A stretch of 61,952 nucleotides of DNA, counting the filler, from Fonticula-like sp. SCN 57-25 (Eukaryota): the NCBI GenBank assembly GCA_001724245.1. It is 3 parts of 3 records of this genome, joined end to end, with 100 filler letters (N's around TTAATTAATTAA, not from the genome) between each part and the next. Parts side by side here need not be neighbours in the genome. Positions count along the whole stretch, not along the records: positions 22,850 to 42,447 come from MEDX01000098.1; 2 more parts are not named here. One strand, written 5' to 3'. The position numbers and the translations under genes are program-made. Positions 6,616 through 53,573 of the stretch are shown in pieces (the stretch's first letter is position 1; each line of letters starts with the position of its first letter). A model generated the notes under the pieces. It searched no databases, had not been told where the DNA came from, and was given only the letters and a program-made list of their open reading frames with translations.

Positions 6616-6700
6616 CCCCTCTGACGCCGCAGCAGACGTTTGCAGTTTGCAGTTTGCACTTTTGTTTGCAAGTTGTTGGCAGCGCGCGCACGACGGTGCA

Positions 6701-17261: not shown

Positions 17262-18163
17262 ACGATCAGCAGAGATGCGCTGAAATAAAATAATAAAAAG
17301 TCGAAATATTTTCATTGAAAGGCGGAGGATATGCTATCAAAGCTAATACTACAAACACAAAGGCCAACATACAACTAAAAGGAACTATTTTGGTGTGATC
17401 CATCCGTGGGCACCCAAATAGTCAACACTCACAGGATACATCCTGACAGATCCGTCCGGAGCGGCCTTGGCCAACATCCACTGGCCACCGCCTTGGCTTG
17501 CCGTCCTACCCGTCAGTGCTCTCGCAGGCCACCAGATATCTGCCAGAATTCGCATCACATGTCGCAGAGGTACGACTAACATCTGTGGACCCGGCCCGTC
17601 GTGACGCGCCAAGCGAAGTTTATTGGAGTCACCAACGTCAGCAGCGCGTTTGATTGGACAAGGAGAACTGCAAATTTGCGATGTGATTCTATTGGCGGAT
17701 GCTTTTACCAAAAAAGGGCAAAATACACAAAAAAGGAATTTGTTCCATTTTTTGTGGGCTGTCTTTTTCCAGACGACGTTTTTTCGCTCATAAGACGAAG
17801 AAAGGGAGGGACCGGCACCTGCGGCGTCCGCGTGAGTAGGACGACAGACCGACAGGAGGCGTGAGCAGTTCGTGAGCCTACAGCTTTACGCATTGCTGTT
17901 TTTCCTTGGATCGCCTTTCTTTTGTTATTCTTTTTTGAATTTACAGAAAGACCTGCGTCCCTTTGCATTTCGCTGGCCCTACTACGATTTGCACGGGAAA
18001 GGACGGCATCTACTTTGGTTTAGCAGAGTGGAGAGGACGAGATCGCTTGGGGCTTGTTGAAAGAAGGCAAAACTATATTTCACCCAGATCAGCAAGACGG
18101 TTTCCGTTTGAATCGGGATCCGTTTGTTTGATCTCTCGGTGATACTTTGGTTTGTGCTCTAAA

Positions 18164-20293
18164 ATGGAGGGCTCCGATCAAGGTAGCTACGACGAGGATG
18201 ACTTTCTTTATCACGACGCTTCGGACGACAATGACGCTGAATCCCGGCGGTTATTCATGTCGAGCGAGTTCATGTCGGACTCTGACGATGGCGGCGATGA
18301 CGAGGAGGATGAGGCCTTTTTTATCTCTAACGATCTGATCGGCGACGGAAGCGCCATTGAGCGCTTGTTGGATCTCGAAGATCCCGTCCTGACGGAGCCT
18401 ATGCTTGACCACTTGCTGCAGGGCGATGCGCTTGCAGAGATCCTCAGCTACGTAACGCGTATTAATCCCGACTTGCCGAAGAAGAGTGATAGCTCGCGCG
18501 CCCGCGACTACAGCGATCTCGTTGCGCTCAAGCGCTCCTTCAATGCGATGGAGCTTGTCTCGAGCCAGCGTGTCCAGTGGTCGATGCGCTTGGTCCAGGA
18601 GCGCTATGAGCAGATCCTGACGACGATTTTCGCTGTCCTTGACGGCAACTCTGACGGTAATTTCCACCATTTCCGCCGCATTTTTGAAAACATTCTGCGC
18701 CAAAAGCCGGTGGAGGTCATTCGCATTGTTTCGACGCCGGACGGCGATGACAAGCCCCTGATCTACAAGTTTATCGAGTACCTGGACGAGTCTCCTGTGT
18801 CATCATGCCTTGGCACGCTGCTGTTCCTGCCCGTGCCGCGGGGTGAGCGCCGGCCGTTCTACCTCTCGCTGATCCAATGGGAATACTTGCGGCTCATCAT
18901 TGAGCGGATCTGCGTACCAGACGAGTCTGCGTCGTATGCGATTGCCGATTTCCTTGCTCGCGTGATCGACGAGTGCACGCGCGCCGACACGTGCGAGCTG
19001 ATCACTCTGCAGGCGCTCCCCGACCGCCCGACGATCATGGACTGGCTCTTTGACAACGCGATGCGCACGGACGATTTTATGGGCAACGCACAGCGCGCGT
19101 CCCTCATGCGCGTCGCCCTCTGCCTCATCACCAAGAGCGCGCCGCGCGAGTACGAGGTCGCGCTCCCCACCGACAATGGCGGCGTCGTCACGCAGCGCCA
19201 CGTCAACCACCTGAACCGCGCGTTTGATATCTTTAGGAAAGTGGCGCTGGACCGCGCTGACCAGCTGCGGGAAATGCTCATCAACAACGAGCTCGTCGGC
19301 GTCGTCGCGCCCCCTGTGCGTTTCTCGTCGTACACGATCCCGGCCCGCTTCCCCACGATGCGCCTCGCCGTCCTCGAGCTCATCTACGAGGTGCTCCGCG
19401 GGGCAGAGCTCGACGAGATCGAGGATGTGCTCGGCACCTTTGACGCGGCCGTATGGCAGCAGCTCACCAACTGGTTCTTTGAGTACCGCTTCAACAACGT
19501 GTACCACACGCTGTTTTGCAAGCTGTTCACCGTCATCATCCAGCTCAACCACGTGCCGACGCTCAAGAACCTCCTTACGAAAACAAAGTTCCTCTCGAGG
19601 ATGATTGAGCACTACAATGACGAGGCGCCGTCGGGCTGCCACGGCTACATTCTGCTGTTTTGCAACATTCTGCGCCTGTCGGCCGACTCGCAGCCGCTGT
19701 CCGAGTACCTCCCCAGCATGCTCGAGAGCCACCACTTGTGGCAGCAGTTCATCGAGGTCCTGCGCTCCGACACCCAGGCGCAGATCATGTTCAACCCCGA
19801 GCTCGAGGACGCCACGTTCCAGAGGCCACCGCCGCACGTCGGGCCCATGGGCAGCGGGCCGGACGCTGCCGAGGCCCCGCTCGTCAAGGAGTTTTTCATC
19901 CCCGACGGCGTCGACCTCGGGTCGCAGTATGCGTATTCGCTCGGCTTTGTAGGGACGCCGCGCGACGACGCGTCCAACTTTGACTCTGACACCGAGTCGT
20001 CGCCCGAGAAGAAGAAGAAAAAGAAGAAGAAGAAGAAGAAGGGCACCAGAAAGTCGCACTCGAACGGCGGCGACAGCAGCAGCGACGCGTTCCTGAGCAG
20101 CAGCGAGGACGACGAGGACGCCAACTCGAGCTTTAGCAGCGTCGGCAGCGCGTTCAGCCCCGGCCCGTCGGGCGGCCTCAGCATAGACGACGAGCCCAGC
20201 AGCCCGGTCCCGACGCGCGTCACGGCGGGCGGCTCTGGCGTGTCGACCCCGCTCCCGGTCAAGTACACGTACCCGCCAAACTATAGCGAGTAG
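18164..20293 (+). CDS. SAPS/SIT4-associated (PP6 regulatory subunit)-like protein, single coding exon
   Basis: 709-aa ORF; helical core with RLAVLELI and WFFEYRFNNVYH (cf. SAPS FF.Y.WNNFLH), GCHGYI; acidic ends and a poly-K tract. Confidence 0.6.
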   Translation: MEGSDQGSYDEDDFLYHDASDDNDAESRRLFMSSEFMSDSDDGGDDEEDEAFFISNDLIGDGSAIERLLDLEDPVLTEPMLDHLLQGDALAEILSYVTRINPDLPKKSDSSRARDYSDLVALKRSFNAMELVSSQRVQWSMRLVQERYEQILTTIFAVLDGNSDGNFHHFRRIFENILRQKPVEVIRIVSTPDGDDKPLIYKFIEYLDESPVSSCLGTLLFLPVPRGERRPFYLSLIQWEYLRLIIERICVPDESASYAIADFLARVIDECTRADTCELITLQALPDRPTIMDWLFDNAMRTDDFMGNAQRASLMRVALCLITKSAPREYEVALPTDNGGVVTQRHVNHLNRAFDIFRKVALDRADQLREMLINNELVGVVAPPVRFSSYTIPARFPTMRLAVLELIYEVLRGAELDEIEDVLGTFDAAVWQQLTNWFFEYRFNNVYHTLFCKLFTVIIQLNHVPTLKNLLTKTKFLSRMIEHYNDEAPSGCHGYILLFCNILRLSADSQPLSEYLPSMLESHHLWQQFIEVLRSDTQAQIMFNPELEDATFQRPPPHVGPMGSGPDAAEAPLVKEFFIPDGVDLGSQYAYSLGFVGTPRDDASNFDSDTESSPEKKKKKKKKKKKGTRKSHSNGGDSSSDAFLSSSEDDEDANSSFSSVGSAFSPGPSGGLSIDDEPSSPVPTRVTAGGSGVSTPLPVKYTYPPNYSE

Positions 20294-22749: not shown

Positions 22750-22849
22750 NNNNNNNNNNNNNNNNNNNNNNNNNNNNNNNNNNNNNNNNNNNNTTAATTA
22801 ATTAANNNNNNNNNNNNNNNNNNNNNNNNNNNNNNNNNNNNNNNNNNNN
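22750..22849. other. Artificial assembly spacer (N-run with TTAATTAATTAA)
   Basis: 100 nt of N with a central all-frame stop linker; flanking genes are truncated. Confidence 0.95.
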
Positions 22850-24050
22850 AACGACCGGGCTCTCCTTTACACTGAGTCGCATGAATCGCTCGTATGGAAA
22901 CATTCGCCTTACGTGCATGCAGCTGCTCTCTATATGCTGCACGATATCGTCGTCAATGTCGCTTGGCGACCTGCAGTCGTCGTCGACGTTGCACGACGTG
23001 TGCCCGACGACCGGCCTCACCGGGAGGCACATCGCCTCGTCGACCGGCCGCCGCTCAAAACAGAGCGACGTGGACGAGAGCGCGTCGGCGCTGTCTTTGT
23101 CGCAGCACTGCGGCGCGCCGCGCGGCACAGCCTCAATCATGGCGCGCGGCACGCAAAAACCGCCGCCGCGCGACGCGCTCCGGTCGGCCGCGCTCTCGCC
23201 CAAACACGTCAGCCACGAGGCGGTGTCCGTAACCACGCAGTCGTCGATGGCGGTCACGTGCATGCCCGGGACGAGCGAGCCGTAAAGCGGCGACGCGCTG
23301 TCCACGTGTCCGACGACGATGGCGTCGCTTGGCCGGCTGTAGGCGGGTAGGAGAAGCTGCGGGAGGAGAAGAACGGCGAGGAGGCATACCGCGACGAGCA
23401 CCGTGTTGTGCCACACGCCCGCGCAGTAGATGCGCAGCTGGCGAAACAGCGGCGCGGTAGACATCTCGTCGCCGGAAAGATCAACAAACGCGCCGGGGTA
23501 CAGCACGTACACAAAGACGCCAAAGCCGCGCACCGGCACGCCCTCGCTGTTCGCGATCAGCAAAAGCAAAATCGAAAGGGCGCGCGTACCATACGGCGGC
23601 GATGCCGTGGCCGGCCTCGTGAACGATGGCGCTGACGGCGATGGCGAAAAAGTAGTACCCTAGCTGGCTGAGCGGCAGATTAACGCCGGGGACGACCGGC
23701 ACGAGAAAGGCGGCATCGGCATCGGCTTCGCCAGCTGCGCGCGGCGCGCTGACCCACGGACGTACAGTTTGCCATAGCGTGTATGACAGGACCATGACGG
23801 AAAGGAACATGAGCGCGACGCCCAGCACCGCGCCAGCAGAGAACCAACGCGCAAACGCCTGCGGATGCGCCTTGGCCGGCGGCTCAAAGAGGGAGCGAGC
23901 GCCCGTCCAGTACCACTTTACTTGCGAATTCGTCACGGTAATGCCGCATGCCTCGAGGTACGAGCGAAGCGGAGGTTTCGAGCGAAGGAACGCACGCAAA
24001 AGGGCGATCGAGCCCCACGCGCCGCCCACCACAAGTAACACGTCGGCCAT
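22850..24050 (-). CDS. MBTPS2: Site-2 protease (peptidase M50), 3' end truncated by gap
   Basis: VPGVNLPLSQLGYY, HEAGH zinc motif, PGAFVDL, QLRIYCAGVWHN, PDZ-like region and Cys-rich insert. Confidence 0.92.
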
Positions 24051-24222
24051 CCCCGGTGAATCGAAATGATGATGTCAGCGTTCGCGTTGCCGCCAAATTG
24101 ACTTCTGATTCTCGACTGATTTTGTCTGATTTTTGAACCCCTGTCACGGTTCCGCGTCCGCGTCATCTGCCCGCCTCTGCTGTATGCTTCTACGCCGCTG
24201 CGTGCGCTTCTACTCGTCAACC

Positions 24223-25109
24223 ATGCCCCACGTGCGTGTACTTTGCCTATAACTTGTGTTGCTTATACTCACTTTTTGCTATAGACAAAGAATGCTCTTG
24301 TCATGATCGCCGACGGCTCCGAGGAGATGGAGGCAGTCACCGTCGTTGATGTCCTGCGCCGAGGTGGCGTACGTTCTTTACTTCATTCGCTATGTTTTTT
24401 GTTATGTTTTGCGCATGTGCTTTCCCTTTTTTTTCTTTTTCTTTTGACTCTTCCCCGTATTCACGCGTGCGCAGGTGAACGTGACTGTGGCTGGCCTTAA
24501 TGGTACCGCGCCCGTGCGCTGCAGCCGCGGCGTTGTCGTTGTGCCCGACGCGGCCTTCAGCGCCGTCCAGAACGACGCCTTTGACGTTATTGTACTGCCC
24601 GGTGGCGGCGACGGCGCCAAGGCCTTTGCGGCATCCGACCCGCTCAAGGCGCGCATCAAGGACCAGGCGGACAAGGGAAAGCTCGTGGCGGCCATCTGCG
24701 CAGGTGCGGCACCGGCGCGCTTCTTTCTTTTGCGCTCCGCCGCTTGTATGGTCACTAACAGTGCGGGACAGCCCCCATTGCGCTGCACGCCGCCAAGGTC
24801 GGCTTCGGCCACAAGATGACGTCTTACCCGTCTGTGCGGGACCAAATTGAGAAGGGTGCGCGCACATGGCGCTCGCTCATTGGTCCACTAATCTATTCGA
24901 CTGAATAGATGTCACGTACGTCGAGGACAATGTTGTGGTGGACCGCAACATCATCACGAGGTACGCACTTGAGCGGCCCCAAATGTTGCTCAATTCTGTC
25001 GACGTGTAGCCGTGGACCGGGAACTGCAATCGAGTTTGCGCTCGAGCTTGTCGAGCAGCTCGTTTCAAAGCAGAAGCGCACCGAGGTGGCGAAGCCGATG
25101 CTCGTCTAA
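24223..25109 (+). CDS. PARK7: DJ-1/PfpI family protein (multi-exon)
   Basis: ALVMIADGSEEMEAVTVVDVLRRGG, DVIVLPGG, AAICA, TSRGPGTAIEFAL. Confidence 0.92.
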
Positions 25110-25507
25110 CTGGATGCCGGGGATGCAAGTGCGAATTTAGCGTACGAGAAAGGCCGATGAGCGGCATAATTAATACCGTTACTTGCCATGAGCGTTGTAG
25201 AGCAGTTTCTAATACATAGTGATTTTATGCATTGTGTATATTTATTTCATTTGGTTTATTCCTATTGAATGTTCAGTAGCAAAGTCGGGCGACCGCTTGC
25301 ACACCACAATCAGTCATCAATCATCATCAGCACATCACATTGGAATCTGGGGTGGATATTGGGTGGGAATCTGGGGTATATACGGTGCAGACAGCTGTCT
25401 GCCCAGCGTTGCAAACTTTGCAGACAACTCATCCCTCATCCCCCCTCTGCAAACACTACTTTTAATTACTTTTCGTCTACCCAAGTCTTTGAATTTGCTA
25501 TTAAACC

Positions 25508-27914
25508 ATGTCGCGTGCTCCGACGCAGTATCGAAGGCCCGGCGTAATTACCGATTTTATACAAAAGGATGGCCCCCAAGGGCCCGACGGCCGCGGCCAC
25601 ATCGAGGTCGACGGGCATCGGATCTACTTTCGTTTTAGAAACATCCAAGAAGGAACCGCAAAGGTGGGCGCCCATGTCATCTGCAATTACTCGCAGTCAA
25701 CGCACCCGGACCATCAAGGAGAGTTACAGGCGCACGGGATTCGCGTTCTGAGCGAGGTACGCATGAGCGAGCTCGAAGCATGGGTCTTACCTCGCCACTT
25801 AATTTTAGGCTCCTCGTGCCGCCCAGCAACCTCAGCAGCAGCAACAACAACAGCATCAACCGCCGCCGCTGCATTATGGACAGCCACACGGTCAAGCTCC
25901 GTATGCCCAACCTTACCAGCCCCAGTATGGTCAACCAGCACCGCCGCATGTGCCGGTGTACAACGCGCCATACGGTCAGCCTCCTCACCAGCAATACGGC
26001 CAGCATGTTACGCAGTATTATGGTCAGCCTGCTGCCCAGCCGGTGAACCAGCCATACGCGCAGCCATACGCGCAGCCGTATGCGCAGCCGTATACGCAGC
26101 CAGTGAACCAGCCATATGCGCAGACATATGGACAGCCTGTCTACCAATATGGTCAACCGCATCCTTCTGCTCCAAGCGCCCCCGTGAATATGCGCTGCCT
26201 TGCCGGCATTGTCGTGGATGGATACTACTTTTACCTCAAGACCAACCGCGACCACAATGGCATTGATTGGATGGTCAACGAGATCAAGAGGGAATTATCT
26301 GAGAAGCATCAAACGCATATTGACGTGCACCCCTCTGCGCTGCACTTCTTTTTCCCGAATCCCCTGGAAGCTCGAGACCATAAGATCGAGGACGGCATAA
26401 CAGAGGAACAAGCAGCGAAAGATTACGATCGCACGGTAAGGTACCTCAACGAGGTCAAGCGCCGTGGCTGGCAGGTGACCGAGTCGAGCTTCAAGCGCGT
26501 CAACAACAGATGGCAAGCAACATGTGAGGACGTCGCGCTGAGCCAAAAGGTCTCTGAAATGTGTGTTCGAGACTACTCGCCGATTGGCACGGATAACACG
26601 AAGAAGCTGTTGTACATCTTTATTGTTACCGGCGACAAGGACCACAAGGCGACAATCTCTGGATCGCTGAATAATGTGCTGCGCTGGTGCGTCTCCTTCA
26701 ACCCCTGCGATGCGCTCGCCACCACCGCCAATGCCTACGGCCGCTTCATTGGTTTAAACCCGTATACCCCGATGCCCAGAAAGCCGGCCGAGTCGCCCGC
26801 GTCTCAGCCAATCCCGAGGCAGAAGAACTTGAAGAAGCAGAACGAGTTGCCCGCGGCTCAGCAGCAGACGCAGAACGAGTCGCCCGCGGCTCAGCCAACA
26901 CCGAGGCAGAGGAGGCAGAAAAAGAGTCCTGCGCAGGCACAAGAGGATGGTCTGGATGCTCCGGGCCTGCCCAATGTTGGCGAGGATGGCCAGGCATCTG
27001 CCGCTATCCAACCAATGTCCGACGCGGATCACAACGACTATACCTGCGACGACATCAACTGCGAGGAACCGCACCCGGACGTGAGAATCACGCCCACAAG
27101 CCACAAGAATATGTCTTACACGGTAAAGTCAAACATGCTGTCGCCGACAGCGGGAAAGCAAGTCATCTTGACAAACCCCAAGATTGCCAACAACCGGTGC
27201 CATTATTACAAGCGGAAGAGCGCTACCGAAATCTGTCCGAAAGGAGAAAACTGTATAAACCTTCACCTGAATGGTAGTGCGGTGGGAGACAAGGCCAAAA
27301 AGACCGCCAACCCTGCGCGCAAAAGGACAGCCAATCAGGACAAGGCCGATGATGAACAAGGCAATGCCGATGGTGAGCAGGCAAACGCTGATGATGAGCA
27401 GGGCAATGCCGGCAGCAGCGCAGAGGTCAGCAGCAGTCTTGATACGACCCTCATCTCCGTCAACAACAGCGCGGTCGATGCATCAAACTTTGTTATGAAC
27501 GCCGGCCTGCGCCGCGCGCTCTCAATGCCCACCCCTCGAGGCGCCGTCTGCACCGCAAAGCACGACGCATCCAAGACGGATTCCTGCACTTTCCTTCACT
27601 ATCGCTCCGCAGAAGACGGGCGCGCGGCCCAGCAGCAAGATGAAGGAAACGAGGAGGTGGTAGAAGAGGCGCCGAGTGTGGCCGCATCGCATAGCGACGA
27701 TGAGCAGGCGCAGGAGGACGACGAATGGCATGATGCTGCCGAAGATGTGGCTGAGATGATGATGGCAGAAATGCAGGTAAACGAAGAGCACGACTTTGAG
27801 GAGCTGGCCTCAATGTATGAGGTGAGCGTGGAGGATCTCGATGAGGGGTACAGAGTGTATGGAAATGTGGGCGGCGCCATTGAGTACGCCACGAACCGTA
27901 GAGATGAGCAATAG
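25508..27914 (+). CDS. Paralogue 1: cold-shock-like + Q/P/Y-rich + NYN nuclease + zinc fingers + UBA-like (784 aa, intron 25757-25808)
   Basis: Exon 1 (83 codons) is CSD-like; NYN motifs IVVDGYY, TCEDVAL, IVTGDKD; CCCH C-x11-C-x5-C-x3-H; acidic tract and helical tail. Confidence 0.75.
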
Positions 27915-28430
27915 TATCTCTGCGAGGCATGGTGTCCTCCTTTCCTTTATTAAAAATTGTCGTACGTGCGTTTGGCTTTGTATCATCTGCTCGCCTCCTC
28001 TAACGCGATGAATAAATGGAATGATAATGATACAAATCGTACACAAAGTGTTCCCTTTCCACACAATGTAATTGGGGTTGGCTACCGTCGTATCGTACAG
28101 TATCCATGATTGTCCGTATTCCGTGTACTGCACGGCTATGATTACACTATGATATGACATACAGTATGCGGTATGATATGTTGCAAACTGCTTACACACT
28201 TGCCCATATGGGCAGCGCACAATTTGTATGCTATCGACTTCTTTATTTTATGGCTAACAAACAATGCGTTTCTAATTTTGGCGTTATCATTTTTTTCAAC
28301 CGTGATTGATATTTCCACCAGTCATATATCTTCCTCAATCCGTCAACCAATCGTCTGTCTTCAAAGAGTGATGTCTGCCATTGATTACTTTGCACTTACT
28401 TTGCACGCCCTCATCCCTCTCTGCTGAACC

Positions 28431-29387
28431 ATGTCGCGCGAGCCGCCGCAGCACAATGGACAGCCTCGTGGCCAAGCTGCTTTTGCGCAGCCTTCCGCAT
28501 ACCAACCCCAGGATGGCCAACCCGAGATCGCCGGCCATTTGAGATCTGCCGCGGAGCACAACGACTTGACCTGTTCGGACACCACCTGCAACGAGCCGCA
28601 CTCTGATGTGACAGTCACCCCCCTATGGGACACCAATCCGTCTTACAAGGCCAAGTCTAACCTGTTTTCCTACACTGCCGGAAAGAAGACCATCTTGACG
28701 GATCCCAACGCTCGCGTCCAACGGTGCCACATATACAAGCGCAGGAGCCTGACGGCAGAATGTCCGGCTGGAGAGAACTGCGACAAGCTTCACATGAATG
28801 GTAGTGCAGTGGGGGACAAGATCCCCGCGCACAAAGACAACGTCAAGCAGGGTGCCGCCGAGGTTGGCCATGCGAATGCCAACGTTGGCCAGGGCATTGC
28901 CGGCAGCAGCGCAAAGGTCGGCAACGGTCTTACAAAGATTCCCATCTTCGTCGGTGACAGCAAGGTCTATGCATCAAGCTTTGTTGTGAACGCAGGCCTG
29001 CACCGCGCTATCAAGCTGCCCACCCCTCGAGGCGTCGTCTGCAACGCAAAGCACGATTCATCCAAGACGGCTTCCTGCACTTTCCTTCACTATCGCTCTG
29101 CGCAAGACGAGCGCGCAGACCAGCAGCAAAGCCATGGAAATGAGGAGGTGGCAGAAGAGGCACCGAATGTGGCCGCACCGCATGAGCAGGCGCAGGAGGA
29201 CGAATGGGATGATGCTGCCGAAGACACGGCAGCGCTTATGGCAGAAATGCAGATGAAGGACGAGTTTGACTTTGAAGAGCTGGCAAACGAGTACGAATTG
29301 AGCGTGGAGGATCTCGCTGAGGGGTACAGAGTGTATGGAAATGTGGGCGGCGCCATTGAGTACGCCACGAACCGTAGAGATGAGTAA
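28431..29387 (+). CDS. Paralogue 2: truncated copy with zinc fingers + acidic + UBA-like tail only (318 aa, intronless)
   Basis: Intact ORF homologous to both neighbours; lacks the CSD exon body, the intron and the NYN domain. Confidence 0.75.
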   Translation: MSREPPQHNGQPRGQAAFAQPSAYQPQDGQPEIAGHLRSAAEHNDLTCSDTTCNEPHSDVTVTPLWDTNPSYKAKSNLFSYTAGKKTILTDPNARVQRCHIYKRRSLTAECPAGENCDKLHMNGSAVGDKIPAHKDNVKQGAAEVGHANANVGQGIAGSSAKVGNGLTKIPIFVGDSKVYASSFVVNAGLHRAIKLPTPRGVVCNAKHDSSKTASCTFLHYRSAQDERADQQQSHGNEEVAEEAPNVAAPHEQAQEDEWDDAAEDTAALMAEMQMKDEFDFEELANEYELSVEDLAEGYRVYGNVGGAIEYATNRRDE

Positions 29388-29845
29388 TGGTATCTCTGCG
29401 AGACACGGTATCATCTTTTTACTTTGAATACCCTACTTGTTTGTGTCGACTTTAACTTTACTCCTCTTGAAACGATAATTTTTTATTTAGTTTACAAAGT
29501 GCTCAATGAAATTCCCTTGCCAGTCCCCGCACCCACGCACATACCCATATTTTTTTTTATTGTAACCTACGTTGATTTAATTGAATATCAAAAACACCAA
29601 CCATATTCGTATGCCAAACTACAAGGATATATGCTGCACTCCATGGATACACCATTTTCCAATGTGGGCGGCGCACAATATGATAGCAATCGGCTTTTAT
29701 TTATGCATTAGGGCGCATTGGGCAGACATTGGGGGATACCAACCATGATTGATATTTCCACCAGTCCCCTCTTGACCCCTCCCCAGTCCTGCAGCTAGAC
29801 ACCTTCGAGATTACTTTGCACGCCCTCGTCCGTCGCTTTTGAACC

Positions 29846-32459
29846 ATGTCGCACGCGCCGCCGCAGCACAACCGGCGCGGCGTGATCACCGACTTTCAGC
29901 AAACACAAGGCCCCAAAGGGAACCAGGGCCACGGTTTCCTCAAGGCCGACGGGCAGCGCATCTTTTTTCGATTGGCGAGCGTCGAGGAAGGGAGCCCCGA
30001 GGTGGGCGCCCAGGTCATCTGCGACTACGTGCTGTCGACGCACCCGAGTCATGCAGGAAAGATAGAGGCAGTCAAGATTCGCGTCAAGAGTGTGGTACGC
30101 GGGACCGTTCGCGACGCGCGCGGCGCTGACTTCTGTGTTTCAGGCTGCGCAGCCCGCCAAGAATCCGGGTAAAAAGAAAGATACCCCGCATCAGCAGCAA
30201 CAACCGCAGCAGCAGCAGCAACCGCAGCAGCAGCAGCAGCAGCAACCGCCGCCGCTGCATTATGGCCAGCCGCATGGCCAAGCTCCGTTCGCGCAGCCGT
30301 CCGCTTACCAGCCCCAGTATGGTCAACCAGCACCGCCGCATGCGCCCGTGTACAACGCGCCGTATGGCCAGGCTGCTCCCTACGGACCGCCTGTCACCCA
30401 GCCGTATGGCCCGCCTGCCATGCAGCCGTACGCATACGGCCAGCCTCCTATGCCATATGGTCAGCCTCCTGTCCAGGCGTACGGCCAGCCAGGATATGGA
30501 CAGCCGCCGATGCAGCCATACGGAACGCAATATGGTCCGCCGGTTAACCAGCCGTACGGTCAGATGCCTATGCAGCAGTATGGTCCGCAGTATGGCCATC
30601 CCCATCCGTACGGCCATCCGCAGCCTTCGCGCGGCCTTGCCGGCATCGTCGTGGACGGGTACTACTTTTTCCTCAGGACCAACCGCGATCACAATGGCGT
30701 TGATTGGCTGGTTAACGAGATCAAGAGGGAACTCTCTGAAAAGCACCAAACACAGATTGATATCCACCCCTCTGCGCTGCACGTCTTCTTTCCCAACCCC
30801 ATGGAGGCGCGCGACAAGAAGGGCGAGAAGGGTATCACCAAGGAGCAAGCTTCGGAAGATTACGAGCGCACGGTAAGGTATCTCAACGAGATCAAGCGCC
30901 GCGGCTGGCATGTGACCGAGTCGAGCTTCAAGCGCGTCGGCACCACGTGGCAGGCGACATGCGAAGACGTCGCGCTGAGCCAAAAGGTCTCTGAAATGTG
31001 CGTTGCAGAATACCCGCCGATTGGCACGGACAACACCAAGACGCTTTCGCATCTCTTTATCATTACCGGCGATAAGGATCACAAGTTGACCATCTCTGGA
31101 TCGATGAATAACGTGCGGCGCTGGTGTGTCTCCTTCAACCCCTGCGATGAGCTCGCCACCACAGCCAGGGGCTATGGTCGTCTCATCGACCTAAAGTCGT
31201 ATACCCCGATTCCCAAAAAGTCCGCCGAGTCGCCCGCGGCTCAGCCAAACCCCAAGAAGAAACAGAATCAGAATTCTACCCAGACGGCGCACGAGGTCGC
31301 CCAGTCGTCGACGCAGGCCGCGGCCAACCCCAAGCAGAAGCAGCCGCCGGCCGCCAAGCAGGACGCGGCCCAGCCCGGGCGCAAGAACGCCAAGCAGGGC
31401 GGCGCCAATCAGAATGCGGCGGCGTCGGCTTTGGCCAATCAGGGTGCGTCGGCGTCGGCCTCGGCCAATGCCAAGCCCGCCGCGGCGCACGACCTCCTTG
31501 CCTGCTGCGTCGCTCGCTGCAGAAAGGGCGCGCACCCGGAGGTGACCATCACCCCCTTTAACAAGGCCAGTCCGGCGTACACGGTCAGGTCGAACAGGCT
31601 TGCGCCGACGGCCGGAAAGCAGCGCGTCTTGGCAAACCCCAAGGCAGTCGTCAAGCGGTGCCACCAATATATGCGGAAGAGCGCAACGGCAGAATGCCCG
31701 AAAGGAGAAGCCTGCCCTTTTCTTCACCTGATCGTGAAGGCGGCAGAGGACAAGCCTGCTGCCGAACAAGATGTCGCCGGCAGCAACGAGGCTAAAAGCA
31801 AGGAAAATAATCGCAGCAAGGGGAAGAAGAAGAAGGCGGGCAGCAGCAGCGCGGGCAGCAGCAGCGCAGATGATGGCAGCAGCCTCGCTGGAATCTTTAT
31901 CGTCGTCGGCGACAGCGCTGCTGAGGCGTCAACCTTTGTGTTGAATGCCGGTCTGCGCAACGCGCTCGCGATGCCCGCGCCTCGAGGCGAAGTTTGCATC
32001 ACTGGCCACCCGGCTTCCGAGACGGATTCCTGCGGTTTCCTTCATTTCCGCCAAGATAACATTGCCGAAGACGACGTTGCTGAAGATGACGTCGCTGAAG
32101 ATGATGTCGCCGAAGATGATGAGCACGAGGACGAGGCCGCGGCGTACGACGACGATGATGTGGAAGACGAGGAGCATGAGGATGCTGTGCACGATGAGGA
32201 TGCTGTGCATGACTACGAGCAAGTGGACGCCGCCTCCGCGTTTGTGTACGACCATCATGGTGACGAGGAAGATGATGGCGCACGGGCCGTTGCCGAGTTG
32301 ATGGAGAGGACGCGCGTGCAAGAGCACGACATTGAGGGGCTCGCGGCAGAGTACAGTGTCAGCGCAGAGCTCATCGCCGAGGGGTTCAGACGGTATTCGG
32401 AACCCAATGCTGCCGTCGAATTTGCCTTTTCGGTCCGCGACGGTTCCATAATTATGTAG
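29846..32459 (+). CDS. Paralogue 3: cold-shock-like + Q/P/Y-rich + NYN nuclease + zinc fingers + UBA-like (854 aa, intron 30095-30143)
   Basis: Same 83-codon exon 1 and intron position as paralogue 1; GHGFL/IFFR RNP-like motifs; IVVDGYY, TCEDVAL, IITGDKD. Confidence 0.78.
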
Positions 32460-32642
32460 AAAAAACGTGTTAAAGTGATATTTGTTGTAGCCTTTGGCTT
32501 TTGTATTATCTGTTAAACCCTTCTAGCGCGATAAATACAAGGTGTATCGACGGTTCCCCTTTGTCTCACTCACATTTATCGAGCACATTCATCGTGACGT
32601 AATGGCATTTGCTGACACACCAAATCGTGCTCCATCGTGGGA

Positions 32643-33727
32643 ATGAGCGGGTACCCGGGCGATCTGAGCGAGGCGCAGGCGGACACGCTGAGCTGGATGC
32701 GCGCTCGTATTCGCCGCGAGATAGAAGAGGACCCGTCCATTCTTGAGCTGCTCCCTTCCAACCTAGAGGAAGAGATCAACGATGACAGTACGTATCATGC
32801 TTTTTTTGGCCGCGCTCGCTGACGACATGGCATGGCCGCTGTAGTGATCACGCTCAAGTTTTGCCGGTCTTGCAACTGGGACGCTGAAAAGTCATACGCT
32901 ATGTTTCTTGACGCGCTCAAGTGGCGCCGCTCCTTTGGCGTCGACACGATGACCGAAGCGGTACGAGATCGAAAAGTGTGGGAGGGATCGAGGGTGGCAC
33001 GTTGTGTCGGGCGCGCACGTGCACCTCTGAAAGGCGCTTTCCCTGCTTCCTTGCGTTTGCTGCCCTTCTAATGACATTGTTTGCGCAGGATCTTGATCGC
33101 TCGATCAGCGAGGCCGGCATGTTCTTCTTCCTCCGCGATGGCTATGACAAGGAGAACCGCCCCGTCGCTGTGATTCTGATCCGCAACCACGACAAGTACA
33201 CGATGGACCCCACGCTTCTTCGCCGCTTCTGCGTGTTCCACATGGAGCTGTGCCGCCGCCTGGTGCCGCCCGGCGTCGAGACGGCCACGGTCGTCTTTGA
33301 CCTCGAAGGGTTCGGCATGAAGAACATGGACCTCGAGTTCATCCAGTTCCTCCTGACCGTCCTCGGCTGGTGCGCGCCGCGCTTGAACAACGCGCTTTAT
33401 ACTTGATGTACTGACACGGCGCGCCGCCAGGTACTACCCGGACACGCTCGGCTACCTCCTCATCTACAACGCGCCGTACTTGTTCAGCGGCTTCTGGACG
33501 CTCGTCAGCGCGCTCCTCGACCCAGTGTCCGCCTCAAAGGTGTGTCAGCGTAATTTTATTCATTGGCTAAACCGCCGTAGGTCCGCTTTGTCGACAAGGA
33601 AGGTATGAAGGAGTTTATCGATGAGGATGTGCTGCCGGTGTCGCTCGGGGGCACCGCGCCTGACCCGGAGCACCCTATTGTGCCGTCGCAGTTCTACAAG
33701 CAGCTCCAGAAGGGCGGGGAGCAGTAA
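32643..33727 (+). CDS. CRAL-TRIO/Sec14 lipid-binding protein (multi-exon)
   Basis: GYPGDLS, ALKWRRSFGV, GYDKENRPV, VVFDLEGFGMKNMD, YYPDTLG..IYNAP, LPVSLGG. Confidence 0.9.
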
Positions 33728-34211
33728 GGAGCCAATAGGGGTGGCGCGCTTGGGAGAGAGTGGCATGAAAGTAGATATCTTCCTTCTTTTGTACATGTTT
33801 CATTCGGTCGCTGTAGTATATTCACAATAAAAATATCATTTTTGTACATCATTTTGGACTTGATAACTAGTGGTAACGCACGTGACAAGCAATTCGACAA
33901 GATATCAAAAGAGATGCTTGAAATTTTGGTTTTTCAAGTAAAGTATCCAGTATGTCTTAAGGTTTTGTGTCTTGTTACATTGATTGATGTTGAAAAATAG
34001 CACCATATAAACTGATGTTTAATTAAATAATTGTTCCACCTTTGAACATTCCCTCATTTATATCACAATACAATAATAGCATAAAGATATGCATGCCTGC
34101 AAAATTTGGCGTCTTAATGACCATTCGTTGTGCAGTAAACTGAGCTCAATGGAAATGGGAAAAAAATTATTAATCAACCAATCATCATTCGTTACCTCTT
34201 ACTTGGACCAA

Positions 34212-34664
34212 TCACGCACGCGTCTGTTGCTGTGCGGTCAGCGAGTGGCGAGGGATGGGCATCCCAAACTTTCGCGAGATCTTTCGCAAGTCGCGATCTC
34301 GCGAGCTTGAGATCAAGCTTGGGCGCGAGGCGGCCATCAAATTGGGCATATTCATTGCCGCGAGCATTTCCATGGCGCTTCTGCGTGACGGCGTTGGTCC
34401 CCATTGGAGGTCGCTGGTGACCTTTATGCGCGGATTCACCGGCTGGACCCTCGCCCCGCCCGGATCATAGGCGAGTTGCTTTCCACAGCGTGCGCATAGA
34501 AGGAGGCGGCCAGTTCTTGTATTGCTATTGGTTTGCCGTCTGTGCTCTGGCTGCACGCATCCCTGAAGCATCCAACATGCCGAAGCGGAAGGTGGGAGGA
34601 CGATGTCCTGTGGGCATTTAGAGTCCCATTTTACCCGTATTGTATTTGTATTGTTTGTACTCAT
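34212..34664 (-). CDS. Hypothetical intronless ORF (150 aa), possible orphan gene
   Basis: GC-richer ATG-initiated ORF flanked by AT-rich DNA; one CxxC (CARCG); no family recognised. Confidence 0.3.
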   Translation of the reverse strand: MSTNNTNTIRVKWDSKCPQDIVLPPSASACWMLQGCVQPEHRRQTNSNTRTGRLLLCARCGKQLAYDPGGARVQPVNPRIKVTSDLQWGPTPSRRSAMEMLAAMNMPNLMAASRPSLISSSRDRDLRKISRKFGMPIPRHSLTAQQQTRA

Positions 34665-34773
34665 GTCATGTCATTATATTAGTCGTAATTATTACATATT
34701 AATGTATGTACACCCAAAATACGTCCTTTCCTCGTCTTTTTCGCGTCGTTCGTTTTTCCCGCCAAAATCGCGT

Positions 34774-36277
34774 CTAGATGCTAGACAGGCGCGCCGCCTC
34801 GATGGCGCATCCCATGACGACAATGTCCTCCGGAGCGGCTAGGCCCGCACTTGGCGCCCGCGCGGTCCCCTCGACGCGCTCCACGAGCTTGGGCGCCCGC
34901 GCCATCCCGCCGCAAAAGAGGACCTCGTGGATCGGCCGGTCGCCTGCGAGGCGCATAGCGTGCTTCACGAGCGCCTCCTGCTCGGCCCAAAACGGCTCTG
35001 CGAGGTGCTCAAACGCAGCGCGGTTGATCGGGTGAACCATATGAAGCGGGCCGGCCTATGTAAACAGTTAGAAAAAGTGAAGGAAAGGCGACCACGGCAG
35101 AGGGCCAGAGGATACAGAATGGATGACAAAAAGTGTAGAACCAGCAACTATTACCCTAACTCCCTCAGCCTAGCATCACACGCACCGCAATATAAGGCAA
35201 GTTGATTGTCGTTTGTTTGCTTGTCGACAAGTCTATTCTCGCCTGCTCGACCGCTTCCAGGAATCGCGCCCTTGCAAGCGGGTCTGCCATGACGTCAACG
35301 CCCGTTTCCTTTTGAAAAGCTGCCGCCGCGCTCGCCGCGAGCAGCCTGTCAGGCGCGTGCGCCGCCAGCGGACTCGACACCACGTGAGCGACAATCTCCC
35401 ATTCGTCGGCGCGCGTGCGCTGAACGACTGCCGCGGACGGACGCACTCCTGCGTCGTACACGAGCAGCGTCTCGCCCCCCGACCTATCCGTGCCGGCCCG
35501 CGTGTGGCTGTACGTGCGCGCCGCCGCAATTGGCGTGTCGAGCAGCGCGGCCACGTGCAGTCCCGCGTGCGCGTACGCTGCCGTGATTGCGACGCGCTGC
35601 GCGTCGTCAAAGGATGGCGGGACGGCGGCGACAGTGAGCGCGCCGTCGAGTGCCTTGGCGCCGAGGAGCGCCGCCGCGGCCGCCTTTTGCTCCTTTAGGA
35701 CGACGCGGAAGAGCGATTCGGGAGCAAACGGCTTGCCGCGAAGGCGGACGCGCAGCGGCGGTCCTTGATCAATGTCCACGCCGCTGCGCTGCAGCGCGGA
35801 GAGCTCGTCGGAAGGCAGGCTCGTGCGGCCGACGAGCGACGGCAGGGCAAAGACCGACGACCCGCCGCCGTGGACGAGCGAATGCGTCTTGGCAGCAACG
35901 CCAACGAGCATTGCGCCTTCCTCGTCGACAGCCACGTACGCAGGCGACGCGTGGCGGCCGCTCTTGCTCTCGAGAACGCGCACGCGCTTCACGGTGTCGA
36001 GGCCATACTGGTCGGTCTCGACAATGGGGGTCGCAAAGCGGACCTCGCTGCTACCAAAGTCAACGCCGAGAAGAGCGCGCGGAGTCTCGTGAATGCGGCG
36101 CTGGCGTCGCTCTTCTTCGCGCTCCTCAAAGGACTCGACCTCGATCCGGCGCACGCGGGCGAGCAGATGCCGCGCCAGAAGGCCGCTGCCGATAAGCGCT
36201 AGCGCAAGCGGCACTTGGTAGCCGCGCGATAATGCCGGCGGAACGGAATGAAGGCGGGCAGGCCGCGTGCTCAACAT
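34774..36277 (-). CDS. Atypical Hsp70-family protein: N-terminal hydrophobic segment + degenerate DnaK-type ATPase domain, no substrate-binding domain
   Basis: LGVDFGS, VPPSFDDAQR, FQKETGVDV..DPLA..R..EAVEQARIDLS..QTTINLPYI, LFCGGMARAP, PEDIVVMGCAI; intron 35056-35185; start inferred. Confidence 0.8.
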
Positions 36278-36443
36278 GACACGCGGCTGCTTAAAAAGCT
36301 GACAAAGGGAAAAGAGAGTGGCCGGCTGATCGTCTGCCGCCGCCTCCACAACAAGCAGCACGTCAGCGTTTCCCGAACGTCGAGTCAGCAAAAGAAAGAT
36401 CCGATTGTGGCAGGGCTGTCACAGTTTTTGTCCTCCTTCCGGC

Positions 36444-37024
36444 ATGTCGATCACGCACACGCAGGCCGTGCAGCGGCTGTACCGCCAGGCGCTCAGGACG
36501 TCGCGGTACGCCGAATTGGCATTATATTGGTGACGAGTGTGGCGTGAAATGAGTATATTTGTCGCTTTTTGTTTCTTTAATCTTGCCGGTTTTCGTTTTC
36601 TGACGCATCTTAGCGACTGGGCCATTTACACGGACGTATGGCGCCCGATGGCCCTCAAGATCCGCGTCGAGTTTGACGTGCGCACTCGCGTTGTCGCTTT
36701 TTTTTACTAACCGTTTTCTCTTCTATTTCTTTCTTTTGCCCCATTTTGCCTCGTTTTCCTATGGTTGTGATAACAGGCCAACCGCAATGTCGCCGAGCCG
36801 CGCGAGATTGCCCGCCTCATGGATGATGCCGCTGCCCGCCTCGAGTCGCAGCGCCACCCCGACCCCTACCGCCGTGCGCCTCTTTCTCTTTTGCGCAAAT
36901 TTCTTGTTGCTGACGTGTTTTTTGCCACACAGGCCCCGAGGCGCCCGAGGGCAGCAAGTGGGAGCGCAACATCCCGCCGCGCCCCGACATTCACTTTGGG
37001 GACTTTGCGAGCCCCGCGCACTAA
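36444..37024 (+). CDS. NDUFB9: NADH:ubiquinone oxidoreductase subunit B9/B22 (LYR family, 4 exons)
   Basis: Spliced product MSITHTQAVQRLYRQALRTSRDWA...IRVEFDANRNV...RHPDPY...PEGSKWERN. Confidence 0.9.
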
Positions 37025-37392
37025 GTTCAAATAGCGAAACTATTCTCGTCTGTACTGTTTTAAATAAACCAATGGAATTCCAATGAGCCGCCGCCGCAGC
37101 AGGAGCATCGAGATACCCAATGGGAGCCCCGTTTTGCTTCTTATGGGTATTTTGATAGTCTGATATATATTCAACACGAGAGGGAGCAACGGAAAAGGAA
37201 CGAGAAAAGGAATGAAAAGACTCAAAAGAGTGCATTGAAGCTACAAACACGTTAAAGAACGACACAAAAACGACAAAAGGCGCGGCACCAATTGACCATC
37301 ACTGGCACCCAAACAGCACCAAAAGGCGGTAAAATGGCAGCCAAAGACCCGAAAAAGCACGAAAAGACACACAAAGACACACAAAGCTGCGC

Positions 37393-40092
37393 CTAGACGA
37401 CGCGCTCGAGCGTCCTTGCCTGGTTCGTCTGCCTGAGCTGATCTCTCCTGAGCATGATCTGGATGGCCTTTGCGATCGCCGTATCGGTATAATCCTTCCT
37501 CTTGAGCTCATCGACGAGCACACGATGCTGAATGCGCGATCCGACCGGGAGCCTCCTCCTGATGTCGCGCTCGACCGTCTCGACCTCCTTGAGCATGTCG
37601 CCGCGCACGACGCCCTCCATCATCTGCCCGCTGTTCACCGCATTCATCGTCGACACGGTAAACAGACGAATCGCCTCGTCCACGTGGCGCTCCGTGGCGT
37701 ACGCGCTGAGCGTCATCTTTGCGAGGGCCTCGGTGATGCGCACGATGGCCTCGAGCTGGCGGACCGTCACGGGGATGCTCGAGCGCTGGTCGGCCTCGGC
37801 TTCCTTTTCGCGAACGTCATTGCGAATGCTCACAAAATAGTTGACAAGCTTCTCGGCGGCTTCCTCGGAAAGGCGAGGCGCGCATTTCCTATTGAAACGT
37901 CAATTTCATGCTGTATCGGCCAGTGAAAAAGGGGTAAAGACGTACATGCGGCAGTACGAAACATAGTTTTTCATCTGCTTGATGTCAATGTCGGCCACGG
38001 CGCCGTCGCCCGCAACATTGCGGTGGACAGAAACGACGTGCTTGGCGAGGCGCTAAGGGGGCGTTAGTGGCGGGTAAGGGGGAAAGGGAAGCGTACCATG
38101 TCGGTGTGCGGGTCGTGCTCGTCCTTGACGATAAAGATCATGTCAAAGCGAGACAGAATGGTCGATTGGAAATCAATATTCTAAAGGCAATTCAGTACAC
38201 ATGATGACGGAAACATGAAACAATACATAAAAATCACACGAAATATACACGATAAGTACACGAAAAGTATACCAAAAGTACACGAAATTCACCATAACAC
38301 AAAATATCATCAAAAACAATATATCCTTCAACCAAATTCATTCACGCACCTCTCCCGGCGACTTTAGGTCGTCGTATCTTCCAAACACAGGATTCGCAGC
38401 CGCAAGCACGGCCGTCCTCGAATTGAGAATCGTTGTAATACCCGCCTTTGCAATAGATATCGTCTGCTGCTCCATCGCCTCGTGAATAGCGACGCGGTCC
38501 TCCTCCCTCATCTTGTCAAACTCGTCAATGCAGACAACGCCGCCGTCGGCGAGCACCATTGCGCCTCCTTCAAGGTAAAACTCGCGCGATGCCGGGTCGC
38601 GCACCACGCTGGCGGTGAGACCGGCCGCGCTGCTGCCCTTGCCCGACGTGTACACACCAATGGGCGCCATCTTTTCAACAAACTTTAGCAGCTGCGACTT
38701 GGCCGTGCCGGGGTCGCCCAGCAGCAGCACGTTGATGTCGCCGCGGAGGCGCATGCCGTCGGGGAGAAGCTTGCGAGAGCCGCTGAAAAGGAGGCACGCA
38801 ATCGACTTTTTAATGTCGGCGCTGCCAAAAATGGACGGCGCGATCGAGTTGGCAAAGCGAGCGTAAATGTCGGGCTGGTGCGAGAGAGCGATCAGCTCGG
38901 TTTCTTCGGCGCTCGTGAAAACGCGCTTGAGGGTGCGGCCAGAGCCTTCGCTGTCAATCTCGAGGCCGACAATGCGGAGGTACGAGGAGCGGACGGCGGG
39001 GGCGGGGCCCTGGAATGAAAGCGTCAGTTGTTGGAAGCGGGCAGGAAAAGACGGAAAACATGCAAGAAAAGACGTAAAACATCCACAAAATGTCACAAAA
39101 TGATACCAAAATGACAACAAAATGACAACAAAATGAGCCAGAAAACTAAACTACATTTTACAATACTCGCCCACCCTTCTCTTTCCCCCACGTACCGTCT
39201 GCTTGCTCTGAAAGATCGAGTAGACGGCGACGGCGGTCACGCGGGTACCGGGGACGGCCCTGTTGGCGAGCGACCTGTCGCACGTCGCGAGCATGTGCCT
39301 GGGCAGCTCACCGACGGGGACCATATCCGGCGGCTCCTGCAGCTTGAGCGTCTGCTGGTCGACAAACTGGCTTCCGTCGGGGACGATCAGGTAGGGGTCG
39401 ATGGGGCACTGCTCGCCCGCCTGCTGCGCCTCGACGCGCACGCGGCCGCACGAGCGCGGCAGCGAAGCGCCCGTGATGCCCGCCTTGAGAGGGATGAAGC
39501 GCGTGTCGCGGCAGTTGCGGCACATGATGTGCAGCATGGTCGCCTTGGCCTGCGTCGTCGATGCGCTAATCACAATGGCGGGGATACGAACAAGCTTGCT
39601 AATGTGCTCGGCCGTGAGAGAGCGAATAGGCGTCGCATTCGCATTCGAGCGAAGGACAACTTGCCAGTCGGAAATGTTGTCCGGGTCCTCATTCGGCTTC
39701 TTCACCGCATTGCTCAGCGTCTGAACATACACCTTGGCGGCATCCTCAAACTAGAGAAAAAAGAGTGTTAGAGAAGAGGAAACGAAAGGAAAAAAAATAC
39801 AATCAAACAAAAGGCGCACAATAGGCAAAACGTCGGTCGGGCGGTTCGTAATGTGGTTCGTGAGCGTCTCATCAAAGGCGGTCAAGTGGTCAAGCTCGAT
39901 CTCGACAACATGCTGCCTCACCTGCAGATTCTGCAGCAACTGATCACGGTACACGAAGAATTCGCCCAAACGAAACTCGCGGAGGAACTTTAGAAACTTT
40001 CCGCTCAATTCGGCGTGCTCGGGGAGGTTGCCGACATCATTGGGAGCGAGGATCTCGGCAGTGTACACACCGCCGACATCAAACCCCGACAT
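37393..40092 (-). CDS. MCM5: DNA replication licensing factor MCM5
   Basis: [66 protein letters not shown]. Confidence 0.97.
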
Positions 40093-40733
40093 GTTGCACC
40101 TGGAGGGAGGGCCGAGTACTGGTGGAAATAGCAATAAGAAAGGAATCCTACATCGATTCTGATTGGACAACGCCATGTGTCAACCTTTCAAAGATCCCTT
40201 ATGGCATTCTAGCATGCGATGGCCATCTTTTGCAGATGCGCCAACTGTATTGCTGCCTTTCGCGCTCTTTGGACTGGCGCACATCATTAATGTGCACTTT
40301 ACAATAATACTCGCCAGATCTGCGGTTACGAAACTTCTATTTTCCACTCTTCATGGTTGTACAACACGGGAACGAGGAGGATAGGCCCGGCGAGCGAGTG
40401 AGGGGAGGGCAAAGCGAATGAAGAAGAAATACAGGAAAACAAACGAAACGCGAGCGCGCGGCGACGGCCGACCCGGCCGTGGCGGTTCTCACACCGCGCC
40501 CCCACGACAGCGACTCTTTTATAAGAGTTATCCAAACAGATATAGAATCGACATTCATCCAGCAACAAACACAAATACACGGTGGCGCGCCTTCCACCTC
40601 TCCTCTCCCCTTCTTCCCCGCGCCTCCCCTCTCGCAAAAGCAGCAAAGCACCGCCGCCACAGCCGCCGGCATCAATAAAAAACAACAAAGCAAAACAGCA
40701 CGGCAAAAGTGCGGCGCCCGGCGCCCGTCGGGA

Positions 40734-42447
40734 TCAAGCAGCAAGGTTCACCTGCTCGATCCTGGCCGACAGCGACGCCTCGTCGTCGTCGTCGTCGTCG
40801 TCATCGTCGTCGTCCTCGTCGCCCTCCTCTACCTCGTCGCTCTCGTCTCCCACCTGCGGCTGGCCGGTCAAGTCGTACGGCGTGGCCGCCAGCACGTCCT
40901 CCAAGGAGCGGTGGCGCACAAGCAGGTTGAGCACCTGAGAGTCGACGGGGAGGACAGACTTGCGGCGGATGCGCGGGAAGCCAGCAGACTCCTTGTCGGG
41001 CGACGAAGATGAACCGCCGCGAGGCTCAGTAAGCTCGTCGTCGTCGTCGTACTCTTCGTACTCGTCACGGTCATAGTCGGCGGCAGCGGCAGCGTCGGCA
41101 ACGGGTTCTGCGCCGTCGGACGCATCGGAGAGGGCAGACGAGACGCCGGCGCCGGCGCCGACAGCGCCAGCGCCGCCGGAAGTGTCTCCAGGGTGGTGAC
41201 GGTCAGCGTCAGCGCTCGCATCGGCGCTCTCGTTGCTCGTCGTCGATGTCGCAGTCGCGCTCTCCGAGTCGGGGCGGCCGCCAATGAGGGAATAGTTGGC
41301 GCGAGCGGTCGCCTCAATGCGACGCCACGCCTCTTCACGCTCACGACGCGCGCGACGCTGCCTAAAGTGGGAAAAAGGAGAAAAACATGTCAGAAAACAG
41401 AAAAAACCATGCCACCAAAAAGACGCACTGCTGCTGCTCGAGCTTGATGTTGTTCATGCAGATATCCACGAGCTCCTTGTCCATCTCTGAAAAGATGCGG
41501 AACGCGTTGAATACGTGCGTCGTTAACGACCTGTTCCAGTGCGTGTCCGACACGCGGCACATTGCGGGCAGGATGATTGGCAGGAGCACCTCGACGTTCT
41601 CCGCGACGATCGAGACAAAGTATTCGTTGTTCCAAAAGTAGAGCGCGCGCTCGGCGACCTGAAAGTGCTGGCTGTTGACACACTTTGCGAGCTTGTGGAA
41701 GAGCGGGATCATAATGTGCTTGAAGAGATTGGGGTCGAGATCGTCCAGGATTTCCTCCATCTCGGTGAGGAACATCACTTCCTTGCTGCTGTTCGTCTTG
41801 GGCCAGTACTTTAAGAGACCCATGACGACCGTCTCGCCCAGCATCGGGTTCTTCTTGAGGAACTGAATGATGCAGTACGCCAGCTGAGAGTGGTACAGCG
41901 AAAGCGAGCGCGCCTTGTGCAGCGGGATCAAAACCCGGTTCAAAAAGGCAGTGTGCTCCTCCTTGAGCGGCACGGTGAACCCATTGATGATGCTAGCACA
42001 CACAGCGTCAGTATACATTCCATTGTGGTTCATTGAAACATACCTCCCGAGAATCTCAAGCAGTTCGGCAATACCATTGTGCCGCTCCGACTCGTAGATG
42101 AACGAGTAAAAGATGTCATTTATCGACTTTCTAATAAAGGCGCGCAGCGACAGGAACTTGCCATAGATGCGATGCAGCGTCGTCTTTAAAAAGTCGCGCT
42201 CGCGTGGATCCTCGCCATCAAACAATTGCAACAGTTCTAGGATAAAGTTATTGTCGATGTAGTTGATGGCCACGCGGGCATTGAACTCTGGCGACTCGAT
42301 AAACCGCAAGAAAAACTCATAGACGATTTGCAAGTGCGGCCACGCAGCCTCCAGCACCGGCTCGTCCTCGTCGGGGTCGAACGCGTCGCCCGTCGGGTTC
42401 ACCTGAGGCGGTAAACTGCGGAACAGATTCACCGAAAACTAAGGAAA
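40734..42447 (-). CDS. PPP2R5: PP2A regulatory subunit B56 (B'), 5' part lost in gap
   Basis: [57 protein letters not shown]-terminal RRKSVLP. Confidence 0.95.
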
Positions 42448-53255: not shown

Positions 53256-53573
53256 CGTGACCAAACGAGTTGCAATCAGAAGGAAATCAGACGACGACTG
53301 ATCTGTGAAAACCCCAGGCCACGTGGAAAGGTTTCATCCGCGTGTCTGCCTGCGCAATAAATTGCTTCAATATCAATTCACCCACGCCAATACAGTGAAT
53401 TATTATCCGAACACGTAAAAAAGAATATTCTGATTGTTGGATGCACAGGCAATAAGCAAAAAAGATTGTCAGCCATAGTGACCGCATGTAAGTATTGAAG
53501 CAGTCCAGTGGAAAACGATTCTGACTGTGCAAGTGTATTATATTATTCGATCTAAAAAACATACACGCGAACT

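Follow-up and report, generated by a model that had tools for sequence, protein, structure and literature searches.

Within the 61,952-nucleotide (nt) stretch of joined DNA analysed here (the window, along which all coordinates are counted; positions 22,850-42,447 come from MEDX01000098.1), positions 25508-32459 hold three paralogous genes, g1, g2 and g3. All lie in the same orientation and are flanked by a DJ-1/PfpI gene (Pfam, 3e-21) and a CRAL/TRIO gene (Pfam, 8e-16), in agreement with an earlier note on this DNA that placed three co-oriented paralogues among housekeeping genes. In g1 and g3 an intact-looking NYN domain of the LabA/MARF1 type is under purifying selection and is always coupled to RNA-binding modules, and g2 is a nuclease-less hybrid with a g3-type start and a g1-type end. 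Together they form a real subfamily, to all appearance undescribed, within a known class of nucleases, and their design parallels that of animal RNA-surveillance proteins. The reading we favour, with a little less than even confidence, is that g1 and g3 are MARF1-like NYN endoribonucleases for decay of the cell's own transcripts, with g2 as a non-cutting competitor.

The NYN domain spans 192 codons in both g1 and g3, which share 80% identity across it, and it shows the NYN/LabA motif pattern that the earlier note had recognized in a conserved domain of about 185 residues. Acidic residues are retained as claimed, although there are five rather than four: D18, E121, D122, D157, and D159 are invariant in all 13 rows of the alignment. 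Judged by secondary structure, and by motif and position for the mapping onto MARF1, some of them follow strand 1 or strand 4 and others sit at the central helix. The fold is PIN-like alpha/beta, as anticipated, and is closest to 2QIP and the MARF1 NYN domain. Domain searches did not deliver the expected NYN/DUF88 assignment, since none of the 13 members reaches the gathering cut-off of Pfam NYN (PF01936; best single member E 0.024). The GYN motif that follows the first Asp in NYN_YacP (PF05991) is not present, neither g1 nor g3 qualifies as having an RNase_Zc3h12a-type (PF11977) nuclease domain, and searching the PDB with the NYN sequence gave only noise; sequence profiles from Pfam, NCBIfam, and the PDB all miss this subfamily.

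The ratio of non-synonymous to synonymous substitution rates (dN/dS) among the copies, a comparison proposed in the earlier note, is 0.24 for the NYN domain between g1 and g3 (p 2e-10); the corresponding values are 0.67 in the cold-shock exon, 0.61 and 0.51 in the finger parts, and 1.0 in the linker. When pooled, the RNA-binding modules evolve faster than the nuclease (Fisher p 0.003). No module has a dN/dS significantly above 1, the highest value being 1.37, which is based on 5 synonymous changes (p 0.62).

The modules around the nuclease are of several types. Weak and indirect matches suggest that exon 1 of g1 and g3 encodes a cold-shock domain, in line with the earlier proposal. A profile of g1, g3, and the homologue P0027 matched only cold-shock domains in the PDB (18 of 18, E 0.18-1.5), and the aligned domain of P0027 matches Pfam CSD at 4.9e-6; on their own, the two exons have no match in Pfam, NCBIfam, or the PDB. 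The low-complexity tract is also as described, with Q, P, Y, and G making up 70% of it in g1 and 72% in g3, a composition that suggests condensate formation. The three Cys/His knuckles are present, but two of them belong to a larger folded unit of ~52 residues that occurs as a repeat. In unit 1 of g1 this comprises a hairpin, short helix, strand, and helix, followed by C-x11-C-x5-C-x3-H, and unit 2 of g1 scores 24 bits against a hidden Markov model (HMM) made from homologues only (shuffle maximum 5.1). The CCCH ligand spacing set out in passages of PMC2873481, C-x(4-15)-C-x(4-6)-C-x3-H, is satisfied by unit 1 in g1, g2, and g3, and in finger 1 and unit 2 a His replaces one Cys; three homologues have C-x5-C-x4-C-x3-H at the finger 1 position (alignment A4). 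A profile of A4 matched zinc-finger proteins in 26 of 27 PDB hits, led by tristetraprolin (E 0.003), and Pfam zf-CCCH finds the g3 fingers at E 0.0087, short of its cut-off. No Pfam model matches the extended unit above its cut-off and ESM Atlas returned only leads under 0.9. A whole-model search of the PDB gave no match for the finger-unit fold, but the tail dominated the result lists, so this is no evidence for a new fold. The unit, which reaches four copies in the homologues P0012 and P0019, merits its own family definition.

An acidic tract and a short helical tail complete the proteins. The tail quoted in the earlier note is that of g1 only, and g2 and g3 have their own versions; three helices with a weak fold match to UBA suggest that the g1 tail may bind ubiquitin. 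The order of modules attributed to paralogues 1 and 3 is indeed common to both, and g2 differs in having neither the cold-shock exon nor the nuclease.

From these features g1 and g3 would be cytoplasmic, metal-dependent endoribonucleases of the LabA/DUF88-MARF1 NYN type. Going by MARF1 and the CRISPR-associated NYN of Bacteroides fragilis, both of loose specificity, the enzyme is probably itself loosely specific and aimed at chosen RNAs by its other modules. Selecting and gripping single-stranded RNA would fall to the cold-shock domain and three zinc fingers. The Q/P/Y/G tract could bring the protein into RNA granules, and the UBA-like tail may link it to recruitment or turnover through ubiquitin. 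Targets would be the cell's own transcripts, including those of mobile elements, through MARF1-style selective decay. The hybrid g2, a product of unequal crossing-over between g3 and g1, would bind RNA without cutting it, and so compete with or tune g1 and g3.

The hybrid nature of g2 is evident from both of its ends: its start resembles g3 (58/72 compared with 44/67 for g1) and its end resembles g1 (684/869 compared with 563/862 for g3). Spacers 1 and 2 align over their full length, whereas the DNA upstream of g1 does not (score 30, maximum 33). Unequal crossing-over in a mispaired g1-g3 pair leads to exactly the observed order of g1, g3/g1 hybrid, and g3. Paralogue divergence at synonymous sites (dS) is 0.5-0.8. 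Between g2 and g1, dS is 0.72 in the first fingers and 0.14-0.35 beyond (p 0.001), and the last 67 bases are identical, a sign of later conversion. In sequencing run X4, one contig (depth 4.5) over the end of the g1 NYN domain has the g3-type base at 13 of the 15 sites listed in 26713-26766, with its left part g1-like; gene conversion in a related strain is a possible cause. An unconstrained g2 frame would have stayed free of stop codons with a probability of 0.002-0.09 across the branch lengths tried. If loss of the nuclease came early, g2 has therefore probably been retained as a protein. Contrary to what the earlier note had supposed, the spacers are not unusually AT-rich: their GC content is 0.41-0.43, and of three other intergenic stretches measured nearby (0.44, 0.41, and 0.34) two are at least as AT-rich. 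A 27-nt stretch (28297-28323 and 29740-29766), 80-110 nt upstream of the start codons, is 96% identical between spacers that are otherwise far less conserved, and is a candidate promoter or untranslated-region element.

Relatives of these proteins are rare. Among 1.84 billion cluster representatives there were 17 matches, including 15 genuine relatives; P0010 is the window's own protein, P0027 and P0030 represent their cluster mates P0011 and P0017, and P0025 was dropped as a WDR19-like repeat. Word-based homologue searches added no relatives to these, giving a self match, nothing among proteins of 1867-5000 residues, and four sequences that were in the set before. The finger unit is found at 8 bits or more in seven of the 15 relatives (four of the seven seeded the HMM), and cold-shock-like repeats occur in two or three copies in three of the 15 (HMM seeds) and in weak or partial form in three more. 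One relative has canonical CCCH fingers and another has three RRMs. In P0012, a RING domain (Pfam, 1.4e-8) that aligns with P0018 and P0019 is followed by a second Cys-rich domain, which may resemble the catalytic end of RBR ligases. All three proteins run from the NYN domain through two units and the RING to a helical end, and g1 and g3 parallel this order with the acidic tract replacing the RING part. The architecture was therefore not built in the g1-g3 lineage alone. P0012, P0018, and P0019 join an NYN RNase and a probable ubiquitin ligase in one chain, and are a stronger lead to defence than g1-g3. The only labelled relative is P0012 (EukProt, Hanusia phi), the others being environmental proteins. 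Kinetoplastid-like protists, considered as a source of the homologues for their long uninterrupted frames and a finger motif, were not confirmed, as the unit did not appear in the papers examined and the labelled homologue is from Hanusia phi; no statement about contamination turned up. No relatives were found in metagenome and viral contigs, for which alignment A1 is too diverged, and tblastn gave no match in phages and plasmids. A tree of 14 NYN rows is star-like with long branches and resolves only the g1-g3 pair; an origin from bacterial LabA is an inference. Searches of the open-access literature found no description of the family, in keeping with the earlier note, which knew of no described protein with this architecture.

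Several observations lean towards genetic conflict: the rarity of relatives, the shuffling of their modules, whose order differs in every one of them, and the faster change of the binding modules. On that account, which we consider rather unlikely, the modules would recognize RNA of viruses, endoparasites, or transposons for destruction by the NYN domain, with g2 as a decoy or regulator; RING relatives would then combine sensor, RNase, and ubiquitin ligase in a single chain that has converged on ZAP-KHNYN-TRIM25. The star-like tree is in keeping with it, as is continuing exchange if the identical g1 and g2 ends and the X4 contig are read in that way. However, relaxed constraint also fits the faster change, none of it amounts to positive selection, and neither NYN domain matched PADLOC. 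The neighbours are housekeeping genes and only three copies are known, all in the window, where scanning the six reading frames with HMMs revealed no additional copy of the NYN domain or the finger unit. Conflict is therefore not required, and invaders seem less probable targets than own transcripts. The earlier proposal of an RNA-decay or antiviral nuclease system is thus supported in part: the NYN type stands, the other modules are predicted to bind RNA, and a dedicated antiviral role survives as this rival.

We consider it improbable that these proteins are RNA-granule scaffolds whose NYN domain either is a pseudo-nuclease or has other substrates (structured RNA processing, DNA flaps). Such a role would fit the lack of an Asn behind the first Asp, the long insertions that bring the domain to 192 residues where MARF1 has about 150, and the persistence of g2 without an NYN domain. 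Least credible is that an ordinary single-copy gene was duplicated neutrally, with g2 a young pseudogene or the array partly a product of assembly. In its favour, no RNA dataset was among the listed runs that match the array, none of the aligned contigs covers the entire array, and one X4 contig connects the ends of g2 and g1 over the 67-nt repeat. Run X3 is identical to the window and has the size of a run from the possible source study, and it is not counted as independent. All eight listed pieces from run X5, of unspecified kind, lie within coding exons and none crosses an intron; they are not counted as evidence of expression. Against it, the dS between paralogues is too high for mis-assembled alleles, fragments of each gene and each spacer, with slight divergence, are present in X4 and X6, which belong to two further studies, and the 17 matches contain no named model-organism orthologue.

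Designs that combine an RNase with RNA-binding and ubiquitin modules are known in animals. To our knowledge, restriction of viral or transposon RNA in protists by means other than RNA interference is largely an open subject. A more far-reaching and quite doubtful possibility is an innate-immunity family of microbial eukaryotes, in which a bacterial-type LabA NYN-cold-shock RNase acts with a ~52-residue unit reading foreign RNA, RING members ubiquitinating partners, and g2-like decoys, as an independently evolved, one-chain counterpart of animal ZAP-KHNYN-TRIM25. If a separate protist version exists, this design has arisen again; if the targets are own mRNAs, the gain for the diversity of RNA decay is modest but real. 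Either way, an NYN nuclease subfamily seen only in uncultured or poorly known eukaryotes is added, and it suits direct testing, with a small soluble nuclease domain, clear predicted catalytic residues, and a natural nuclease-less paralogue.

Table 1. Coordinates of the g1-g3 array and its modules within the window (pLDDT, predicted local distance difference test; OB, oligonucleotide/oligosaccharide-binding).
Feature	Position	Strand	Details
g1	25508..27914	+	784 residues; exons 25508-25756 and 25809-27914; predicted 52-nt GT-AG intron; open frames
g1 cold-shock-like (OB-fold) domain, exon 1	25535..25756	+	profile against PDB
g1 Q/P/Y/G low-complexity tract	25809..26180	+	composition
g1 NYN (LabA/DUF88, MARF1-type)	26199..26774	+	acidic codons 26217, 26526, 26529, 26634, 26640 invariant
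g1 finger 1	27030..27074	+	H-x4-C-x4-C-x3-H; alignment A4
g1 extended finger unit 1	27075..27269	+	model pLDDT 61-89 per 10-residue block
g1 extended finger unit 2	27450..27602	+	C-x3-H-x7-C-x3-H; unit 1 fold in model
g1 acidic tract	27603..27782	+	sequence; pLDDT <50 over most
g1 three-helix tail, UBA-like (weak)	27783..27899	+	
Spacer 1	27915..28430		516 nt; colinear copy of spacer 2; local alignment 92, shuffle maximum 38 (200 shuffles)
g2	28431..29387	+	318 residues, single exon; finger 1, both units, acidic tract, tail present
g2 units 1, 2	28572-28796, 28941-29093	+	kept in g2
g2 tail	29259..29375	+	85% identity to g1 tail
Spacer 2	29388..29845		458 nt
g3	29846..32459	+	854 residues; exons 29846-30094 and 30144-32459; predicted 49-nt GT-AG intron; open frames
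g3 cold-shock-like domain	29873..30094	+	12.6 bits with a homologue-only HMM (E 0.0098; 1401 six-frame segments of the window)
g3 NYN	30636..31211	+	80% identity to g1 NYN; all five acidic residues retained
g3 finger 1 and unit 1 (31503-31730), unit 2 (31896-32048)	31503..32048	+	HMM 17.7, 19.3 bits
g3 helical tail	32319..32435	+	44% identity to g1 tail

The host is an intron-bearing eukaryote. The introns of g1 and g3, predicted from sequence and common position, interrupt an identical site after codon 83, leaving a first exon of 83 codons in each. Elsewhere in the window, a gene with a Med25 VWA domain and a poly-Q tract lies at 14213-15400 (-). An open frame at 9839-11299 (-) has an IPT/TIG domain and ankyrin repeats, presumably the layout of Spt23/Mga2- or CAMTA-type regulators, and is at least three genes away from a site-2 protease-like M50 gene (22805-24074). 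Open frames of 500-716 codons at 18143-20293, 6530-8131, and 53482-55391 have no Pfam match at 1e-4, and the last of these sits in a stretch of GC content 0.72 with both strands open.

Several known systems invite comparison. Regnase-1/ZC3H12, N4BP1, and KHNYN (Pfam RNase_Zc3h12a, PRORP group) follow a similar design logic to g1 and g3, with a PIN-like RNase, CCCH or KH modules, and a ubiquitin-binding helix bundle to which the helical tails of g1 and g3 may correspond. Tetrahymena Smg6L is likewise a protist PIN-like nuclease of mRNA decay (passages of PMC5499736), but its Zc3h12a-type nuclease is joined to Est1 domains and it has none of the g1/g3 modules. The type III CRISPR-associated NYN of B. 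fragilis is prokaryotic, stands alone, and has an operon context, unlike g1 and g3. Bacterial LabA/DUF88 proteins (NYN.COG1432; VPA0982, PDB 2QIP) include fusions of NYN with cold-shock domains. This is an established bacterial pairing: in the portion of the PMC5499597 supplement that was covered, the first 32 of the 36 'CSD' places yield 18 rows with it, and the 32 of 33 zf-CCCH places covered are all NOB1-type proteins; sections of PMC2848206 describe LK-nuclease fusions with cold-shock and Zn-knuckle domains. In contrast with the bacterial proteins, g1 and g3 are eukaryotic, have predicted introns, and carry finger units, a low-complexity tract, and a UBA-like tail, and the 17 sequence matches include no named bacterial protein. 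MARF1/Limkain-b1 (NYN.1 cluster; PDB 5YAA, 6FDL) and plant DNE1 have 12% identity to the g1/g3 NYN domains. With E values of up to 5 allowed, Pfam finds neither the RRMs nor the LOTUS/OST-HTH repeats of MARF1 in g1 or g3; in comparison with MARF1, these genes have cold-shock and finger modules, an extra invariant Asp and His, and a multi-copy arrangement.

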